Source: Escherichia phage FS2B. From it: 58,790 nt of DNA. Positions within the stretch are counted from its first letter, which is position 1. Every line of letters starts with the position of its first letter. The position numbers and the translations under genes are program-made. Location of the stretch: the sequence record MW929182; one strand, 5' to 3'. The notes under the pieces are model-generated. The model had not been told where the DNA came from. It made no database searches and saw only the letters and a program-made list of their open reading frames with translations. Below, piece by piece: positions 38,048 to 38,605 of the stretch.

Positions 38048-38605
38048 TTACATTTTCCAATATAATGAAGGTGGGTCGTAAGGGTCAAATCCCGTGAGTT
38101 CACACAAGAAAAGATAAACCTTAACAGTTAAGTTAACGTCCTGTTCACAATAAGTAAACATATCTTCAGTGAAAGCATCCCATGCTTCCTCTTGCTCACC
38201 GTAGTCACCTTTAAGTTCCTCTAAGAACTCACCCCATTGCTTCAAACCATGACCTCTTGGGCCACGTCTAGGGTCGCCTTTCGGATACTCAGGACTGTCA
38301 CCAATACGGTCAGGTTTAAGATATCGACTAAGACATAAAGTGTCAAAGACGTTAAAATTATATTTAATCAAAGAGGGATACATCTTTTTCAGAGCAGGTA
38401 AGTCGAAGTCAATAATATTATGACCCACTAGTACATCTGCTTCTGTAAGTTTACGAATCCCATCTTCAATTTGGTGAGGCCGATAGCCCCACCTTTCACC
38501 AGTTTCAACATCAAAGATATAAATACACCATACTTTAGTTATGTCATCGTACAGTGCATTACTCTCGATATCGAATGCAAACACTTTCTTCTTTTTCTTT
38601 ACCAC
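38048..38605 (-). CDS. DnaQ-like 3'-5' exonuclease (DEDDy), stand-alone
   Basis: Exo I FDIESNAL, Exo [13 protein letters not shown], Exo [12 protein letters not shown]; 7-nt overlap with the primase-helicase gene. Confidence 0.65.

Follow-up and report, generated by a model that had tools for sequence, protein, structure and literature searches.

A predicted T7-type family A DNA polymerase of a Kuravirus encoded as separate exonuclease and polymerase genes

Does a small exonuclease gene in a phage genome encode the proofreading domain of a DNA polymerase whose gene lies 8.5 kb away, or does it encode a nuclease with a different role? This question is raised by the 58,790-nucleotide sequence of Escherichia phage FS2B (record MW929182), referred to as the window throughout. 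An earlier reading, made from the sequence alone (the sequence-only reading), had proposed that a family A DNA polymerase is split here into two genes. This turned out to be the case: an ORF of 185 codons (38048-38605) and an ORF of 614 codons (27708-29552), both on the minus strand and each with its own start and stop, are separated by 8,495 bp (from the exonuclease stop to the polymerase start), and together they tile single-chain polymerases of the T7 type. Below, we present the evidence for the origin of both ORFs, consider what the smaller protein may do if it does not work with the larger one, and compare the arrangement with known systems.

The smaller ORF is predicted to encode a proofreading 3'-5' exonuclease subunit, an assignment based on the ORF itself, its matches to Pfam, T7 gp5 and PHROG, and the annotation of the relatives Bas90 and SU10. 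It matches the Pfam family DNA_pol_A_exo1 with 34.7 bits (cut-off 23.6, E 2e-8), and its PHROG match is labelled "DNA polymerase exonuclease subunit". The sequence-only reading had described it as a separate DEDDy exonuclease with all three Exo motifs, and its coordinates were found to be exact. The codons of Exo I (D12-I13-E14 within FDIES; 38564-38572, minus strand) correspond to D5/E7 of T7 gp5 in the alignment, those of Exo II (H62-N63-I-I-D-F-D68, HNIIDFD; 38402-38422, minus strand) pair with T7 HNGHKYD, and those of Exo III (Y152-C-E-Q-D156, DEDDy type; 38138-38152, minus strand) pair with T7 YNVQD. In alignment A1, consisting of about 20 free-standing exonuclease homologues down to 33% identity, D12, E14, H62, N63, D68 and D156 are invariant and Y152 is conserved in at least 90%. 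Read directly from the sequence, the translation start (38603-38616, minus strand) consists of a GGAG (38613-38616), a 7-nt spacer and a GTG codon. As had also been proposed, the ORF overlaps the 3' end of a primase/helicase gene, with the GTG start and the TAA stop of that gene sharing 7 nt (GTGGTAA).

The same reading had left room for an RNase T- or oligoribonuclease-like enzyme that would act outside replication. DEDD nucleases do have a common fold (a generic point), and a weak match of the ORF to the Pfam superfamily RNase_H_2 (1.2e-4) points in this direction. However, no match to the RNase_T family was found in Pfam at E <= 0.1, and the only relatives with solved structures at E <= 1 are chains of the T7 DNA polymerase gp5. 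The relatives in sequence databases are also mostly polymerases: a tblastn search yielded hits in 2,160 phage records, and of the matches listed nearly all fall under features for T7-like phage DNA polymerases. A profile search against 1.84 billion representatives gave 5,661 relatives, and the best 150 of these comprise 87 proteins longer than 540 aa that carry the domain at their N-termini and 35 free-standing proteins of at most 260 aa. RNase T and oligoribonuclease belong to the DEDDh type, in which Exo III reads HxxxxD, as opposed to YxxxD in the DEDDy type; the YCEQD of the ORF is of the latter kind. An identity as RNase T or oligoribonuclease was ruled out by the lack of an RNase_T match and by the polymerase-only relatives, and an RNase of any such kind is very improbable at this locus. 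Judged by its sequence, the 185-aa ORF is a DEDDy 3'-5' exonuclease derived from a T7-type polymerase.

The larger ORF (27708-29552, minus strand) is predicted to encode the polymerase portion of a T7-type family A enzyme (thumb, palm and fingers), without an exonuclease domain. It matches the Pfam family DNA_pol_A (E 2.5e-23, 83 bits, cut-off 34.3). On the minus strand, the codons of motif A (D375-R382, DGSGLELR; 28407-28430) pair with T7 DASGLELR, those of motif B (R443-G458, RDNAKTFIYAFNYGAG; 28179-28226) pair with T7 RDNAKTFIYGFLYGAG, and those of motif C (H564-D565-E566; 27855-27863) pair with T7 HDE. In alignment A2, which contains 56 polymerase homologues, D375, E380 and R382 of motif A, R443, K447, Y451 and G456 of motif B, and H564-D565-E566 of motif C are all invariant. 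The description of this ORF as having motifs A, B and C and lacking Exo I-III is therefore upheld by the invariance of these residues and by the lack of any match to exonuclease families at E <= 0.1 in Pfam.

An alignment of both ORFs to intact family A polymerases had been suggested as a way to find out if the two tile one ancestral protein, and four independent comparisons showed that they do. By BLASTP, residues 12-181 of the exonuclease align with residues 5-196 of T7 gp5 (E 8e-18), and the polymerase aligns with gp5 residues ~293-704 (E 1e-32), with the strongest match over its last 194 residues (421-614, corresponding to gp5 496-704). With E-values as low as 1e-32 against T7 gp5, chance is no credible explanation for the homology. 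When the exonuclease and the polymerase were concatenated, the resulting sequence aligned with gp5 from end to end, and the junction fell at about gp5 residue 207, the boundary between the exonuclease and the polymerase. On phrog_17, the polymerase profile of PHROG, the exonuclease occupies positions 667-826 and the polymerase positions 836-1233, adjacent to each other and without overlap. Furthermore, five natural single-chain relatives of ~600 aa are tiled by both ORFs at 35-43% identity; in one of them, P0112 (611 aa), residues 2-145 correspond to the exonuclease and residues 164-281 and 302-611 to the polymerase. By its matches to DNA_pol_A and DNA_pol_A_exo1, the Kuravirus enzyme is assigned to the T7-type family A polymerases and, as its domains are on two ORFs 8,495 bp apart, it represents a split variant and not a canonical single-chain member.

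It had been pointed out that a cryptic, degenerate exonuclease domain might have been missed in the polymerase ORF, in which case the 185-aa protein would be a redundant paralogue. The length of the polymerase, ~110 residues more than the polymerase part of T7 gp5, could speak for this. However, the extra residues are mainly accounted for by a helical insertion (residues 133-242) and a smaller insertion on either side of motif A, and the alignment of the N-terminus to gp5 sets in at about gp5 residue 207. The exonuclease-family profile, run with all filters off, scored just 2.9 bits on the polymerase, and the sole significant match when the whole window was searched in six frames was the 185-aa ORF itself (251 bits). 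In a confident AF2 model built from the 56-sequence alignment (pLDDT 91.2, pTM 0.80), the chain opens with two long helices, and the fold is matched best by structures of T7 gp5 (E 1e-25); the model made from the single sequence (pLDDT 36.8) was unusable. The AF2 model, the profile score and the tiling of P0112 rule out a cryptic exonuclease in the polymerase, and we attach a negligible probability to this alternative.

It is equally far-fetched that a split intein, trans-splicing or a frameshift joins the two halves again after expression. The alignment of the exonuclease to gp5 extends to residue 181 of 185, and that of the polymerase starts at its first residues, so the gp5 alignments account for the new termini and leave no room for intein halves. 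The exonuclease gene has its own stop codon, with the ATG of the next gene located one base further on, and the polymerase gene has its own Shine-Dalgarno sequence (AGGAG, 6 nt upstream) and GTG start. In addition, about 24 genes on the same strand separate the two halves, as counted in SkaterBoy_Bas90, the closest annotated relative. The one point for rejoining is that the polymerase gene of some relatives contains a group I intron, meaning that mobile elements do visit this gene, although this is nothing specific to a rejoining mechanism. A split intein and trans-splicing were ruled out as no residues at the new termini are unaccounted for in the gp5 alignments. A -1 frameshift at the GTGGTAA overlap, which would fuse the primase/helicase to the exonuclease, was also considered and rejected, since there is no slippery heptamer upstream and the spacing of the two genes varies in relatives.

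The group I intron just mentioned is found in some kuravirus-like contigs between the codons for TFIYAFN and those for YGAGD of the polymerase gene. In one relative (L007, positions 4354-4617), whose polymerase is 88% identical to that of the window, it was identified as Rfam RF00028 (264 nt, 102 bits), and the insertion relative to the window measures ~304 nt. The equivalent site in the window is at ~28190, within the motif B codons, and the polymerase gene of the window carries no intron there. Database polymerase "fragments" of ~454 aa and 139 aa, which could be taken for a further split of the protein, are explained by this intron in motif B. The polymerase gene of LUZ24 is also reported to contain an intron (PMC3517423).

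The gene directly upstream of the exonuclease gene (38599-40389, minus strand) encodes a T7 gp4-like primase/helicase of 596 aa, as indicated by a Pfam DnaB_C match (1e-10), a weak Toprim match and the annotation of relatives. Its acidic C-terminal tail (38599-38700, minus strand) ends in W. In T7, the acidic, F-terminated tail of gp4 binds gp5. By analogy, the acidic tail with its terminal aromatic residue hints at a conserved contact between helicase and polymerase. The overlap of the primase/helicase stop and the exonuclease start probably results in coupled translation of the two genes. On the other side of the exonuclease gene, a putative nucleotidyltransferase of 437 aa, annotated as such in relatives, with a long C-terminal extension is encoded (36733-38046, minus strand). 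Its match to the Pfam PolyA_pol head domain is weak (E 0.0023) and below the cut-off, and the annotation of SU10 lists a class II CCA-adding enzyme domain for it. The ATG of this gene is one base past the exonuclease stop (TAAAATG); given this spacing and the upstream overlap, the primase/helicase, exonuclease and nucleotidyltransferase genes are tightly packed. The nucleotidyltransferase gene is absent at the equivalent position in phages SE131 and PSA16.

Between the exonuclease and polymerase genes there are two terminator-like hairpins on the coding strand (34580-34608 and 30736-30761; consensus matches only). Due to these hairpins, the two genes need not be co-transcribed and, with the intervening genes in addition, their expression need not be stoichiometric. 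Also located between them is a gene for a phage thioredoxin of 91 aa with the active-site motif CAPC (34091-34366, minus strand; Pfam Thioredoxin, 2e-13). Residues 72-134 of the polymerase correspond to gp5 residues 293-362, i.e., part of the T7 thioredoxin-binding loop region aligns, with ~23 residues missing. A thioredoxin has been proposed as the polymerase processivity factor in the related phage Privateer (PMC7881722), and the phage thioredoxin of the window is, by analogy, perhaps a candidate for the same function. A candidate for a separate 5'-3' exonuclease of 280 aa is encoded further along (20017-20859, minus strand), with a weak match to Pfam 5_3_exonuc_N (2.7e-6, below the cut-off); a separate 5'-3' exonuclease has been described in kuraviruses (PMC9965538).

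Several other features of this part of the genome were recorded. A sigma-70 promoter with perfect consensus elements (TTGACA, a 17-nt spacer and TATAAT, with a TG upstream of the -10 element) is predicted at 29497-29525 on the minus strand, inside the polymerase ORF and 27-55 nt past its start codon on the coding strand. By a rough estimate, a 12/12 match of this kind would seldom arise by chance in 14.5 kb. In a relative with 88% identity, the -10 element and the entire spacer are unchanged and the flanking synonymous sites differ, while the -35 element reads TTAACG. This predicted promoter inside the 5' end of the polymerase gene might drive the downstream genes. An ORF of 107 aa (32553-32876, minus strand), annotated as "DNA ligase" in relatives, consists of only the N-terminal, NAD+-binding Ia domain of a DNA ligase (Pfam Nlig-Ia, E 8.6e-35), and for the gene at 34616-35227 (minus strand), annotated as "DNA binding protein", a match to the Ferritin-like (Dps-type) family was obtained. 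A single tRNA gene, tRNA-Arg with anticodon TCT, is located at 54553-54628 (minus strand).

The distance between the two genes, the hairpins between them and the start/stop overlap, which ties the exonuclease gene to the primase/helicase gene and not to the polymerase gene, could all be taken to mean that the 185-aa protein is derived from a polymerase and yet has no stable partnership with one. It would then be a free 3'-5' DNA exonuclease, active for instance in the breakdown of host DNA, the processing of ends or recombination, or else an editor that reaches released mismatched ends only by diffusion. However, the protein has retained its catalytic residues as well as a C-terminal tail, FDPYDPP, which in the alignment to gp5 resembles the inter-domain linker (HYFPPE in T7). 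Moreover, it has been noted that a family A polymerase depends on its exonuclease domain for stability, and reassembly of the exonuclease with the polymerase has been predicted for cyanophage S-SBP1 (both in PMC10201439). A further argument against a free exonuclease comes from the inheritance of the two genes, since they are co-inherited across several phage groups. We consider a free exonuclease unlikely and favor a protein that partners with the polymerase.

The evidence for co-inheritance is as follows. Over 3.7 kb around the exonuclease gene, the window is 99.5% identical to SkaterBoy_Bas90 and 98.1% identical to vB_EcoP_SU10, two members of Kuravirus (phiEco32-like podophages), and this 3.7-kb query matches 98 phage records, 66 of which cover at least 80% of it. 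From this similarity and a gene order collinear with those of Bas90 and SU10, the window is assigned to Kuravirus. The exonuclease and the polymerase are each present at high identity in ~97-98 phage records, and both diverge in parallel in more distant phages: the exonuclease is 49% and the polymerase 46% identical to those of SE131-type phages, and the respective values for T7 are 33% and 28%. In six cases, the longest contigs of the exonuclease homologue and of the polymerase homologue are equal in size (e.g., 81643, 88363, 100903 and 86289), suggesting that these six pairs lie on shared contigs.

A word-indexed search with the exonuclease, which reached down to ~34% identity, returned 65 relatives, every one of them short (101-247 aa) and none of polymerase size. 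Full-length relatives of the polymerase were found only in kuraviruses, 7-11/SE131-like phages (46% identity) and LUZ24-like phages (39% identity); with T7-like phages, only the C-terminal 56% of the polymerase aligns, at ~28% identity. All 56 of the exonuclease-less polymerases begin at the same boundary.

The order of the primase/helicase and exonuclease genes is the same in four phage groups. A primase/helicase gene is followed by the exonuclease gene in cyanophage S-SBP1, Bruynoghevirus PSA16, Moazamivirus SE131 and the present Kuravirus, while the position of the polymerase gene differs: it overlaps the exonuclease gene in S-SBP1 and is 1.9 kb, 6.8 kb and 8.5 kb away in PSA16, SE131 and the window, respectively. 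A stop/start overlap of the primase/helicase and exonuclease genes is seen in Kuravirus and in Bruynoghevirus (17 nt in PSA16), and the two genes are also adjacent in Moazamivirus, with a 9-nt gap in SE131; the gap in S-SBP1 is 68 nt. The conservation of this order across three phage groups other than Kuravirus is an addition of the present analysis. The simplest reading is that the exonuclease gene would have kept the ancestral place of gp5 behind gp4, and that other genes accumulated between the two halves. In a neighbor-joining tree of exonuclease domains, the exonuclease of the window falls within a clade of 55 purely free-standing sequences that includes the protein of Salmonella phage SE131, and that of S-SBP1 falls within a separate small clade. 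This tree is rough, too poorly resolved to count fissions, and indicative only.

The most conspicuous feature of the polymerase is the helical segment in its thumb (residues 133-242; 28827-29156, minus strand), which is far longer than the corresponding region in T7 gp5 and in single-chain relatives. Measured between the flanking aligned blocks, it has 110 residues here and 20 in the single-chain relative P0112; the AF2 model places helices at H137-H237. In all 56 exonuclease-less homologues, including the "part II" proteins of LUZ24-like phages, this segment is 75-115 residues long. That the insertion is common to all exonuclease-less relatives is likewise a result added by this work and, together with the common start boundary, it suggests that this polymerase clade goes back to one old fission.

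As the exonuclease gene adjoins the primase/helicase gene and the polymerase has such a long thumb segment, the split could be functional and not a neutral relic. The insertion might then serve as a docking platform replacing the covalent linker, and the dose of the exonuclease might be set together with that of the helicase and not with that of the polymerase. We regard this as a rather doubtful proposal. If true, it would mean that proofreading, and thus the mutation rate, could be tuned independently of synthesis or, alternatively, that one exonuclease could be shared between the leading- and lagging-strand polymerases.

Taken together, these results point with considerable probability to one explanation, a split gp5-type polymerase whose halves reassemble and proofread in trans. 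In this view, the replicative polymerase is of the T7 gp5 type, and its gene was split where the exonuclease domain ends and the polymerase domain begins. The N-terminal domain, a DEDDy 3'-5' exonuclease, became a free-standing protein of 185 aa, and its gene has remained immediately behind that of the gp4-like primase/helicase. The part comprising thumb, palm and fingers became a separate polymerase of 614 aa; its gene is located 8.5 kb further along on the same strand and has a ribosome-binding site of its own. The two proteins would reassemble non-covalently into a gp5-like holoenzyme, in which the exonuclease subunit would remove misincorporated 3' nucleotides passed to it from the polymerase active site, in the manner of the alpha-epsilon pair of E. 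coli Pol III. This holoenzyme would probably cooperate with the primase/helicase, and the phage thioredoxin may take part as well. The physical association of the exonuclease with the polymerase and its proofreading in trans are likely, as the catalytic residues are kept, the two proteins are co-inherited and the exonuclease ends in a linker-like tail, all of which speaks for non-covalent reassembly with a detachable proofreading subunit.

The split arrangement itself is already annotated in RefSeq and published for phiEco32-like and LUZ24-like phages, and therefore carries little weight as a discovery; the formal tiling and the tests that could have refuted it are a small addition of this analysis. 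RefSeq lists the 185-aa ORF as "DNA polymerase exonuclease subunit". In the records of Bas90 and SU10 it carries this same name, and the ORF of 614 aa is annotated as "DNA polymerase". The separation of the exonuclease from the polymerase is common to the whole kuravirus group (PMC9965538), it was described for LUZ24-like phages in 2012 (PMC3517423), and a similar organization is attributed to phiEco32 in its 2008 genome paper, as cited in PMC3517423. In the literature searched, no purification of a dispersed split family A enzyme of the Kuravirus kind was found. The value of the locus is that of a test case, in that unlinked halves have been kept across several phage groups despite the presumed need of the polymerase for its exonuclease domain. 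From the biochemistry of the Kuravirus split enzyme, it would become clear how proofreading works in a family A polymerase whose exonuclease is detachable.

Among known systems, the closest are the pairs of phiEco32 and other kuraviruses (SU10 YP_009152902 and YP_009152926; YF01 gp49 and gp70), which have the same genes, lengths and neighbors. Nucleotide identity of the window to these phages is 96-99.5%, and the gap of 8,746 bp in Bas90 compared with 8,495 bp here is no material difference. The "DNA polymerase part I" and "part II" of LUZ24-like phages (Bruynoghevirus) are also separate genes, and the exonuclease gene directly follows the primase/helicase gene, as in Kuravirus. Their polymerase can be aligned over 98-99% of its length, with 39% identity, and shares the N-terminal boundary and the thumb insertion. 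However, no more than 1.9 kb with seven small genes lies between the two genes, the polymerase is shorter (545 aa) and without the segment after motif A, and the exonuclease lies apart from that of Kuravirus in the rough tree.

The cyanopodovirus S-SBP1 has a T7-like PolA with the exonuclease and polymerase in separate genes after the primase/helicase gene, like Kuravirus, and its split exonuclease and polymerase are predicted to reassemble like the intact polymerase of Syn5 (Czernecki et al. 2023, PMC10201439). The fission in S-SBP1 is recent, was generated by a frameshift and left overlapping genes with intact close relatives, whereas the Kuravirus halves are 8.5 kb apart and all relatives of the Kuravirus exonuclease found in the word-indexed search are free-standing, with the S-SBP1 exonuclease in a different small clade. 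The complex prediction for S-SBP1 thus concerns a recent, adjacent fission, while the Kuravirus split is older and dispersed.

For both ORFs, T7 gp5 is the best relative with a solved structure, with Exo I-III and motifs A-C aligned and Y451 of the polymerase corresponding to T7 Y526. However, T7 gp5 is a single chain of 704 aa and the Kuravirus enzyme consists of two proteins, the larger of which differs from gp5 by a shortened thioredoxin-binding-loop region, a much longer helical thumb segment and two smaller insertions that flank motif A. In E. coli Pol III, the polymerase alpha (DnaE) and the DEDD proofreading exonuclease epsilon (DnaQ) are separate proteins that associate with each other. 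The likeness of this alpha-epsilon pair to the Kuravirus proteins is a functional analogy, as Pol III belongs to family C and the Kuravirus enzyme to family A, epsilon is of the DEDDh type, and the polymerase subunits are not homologous.
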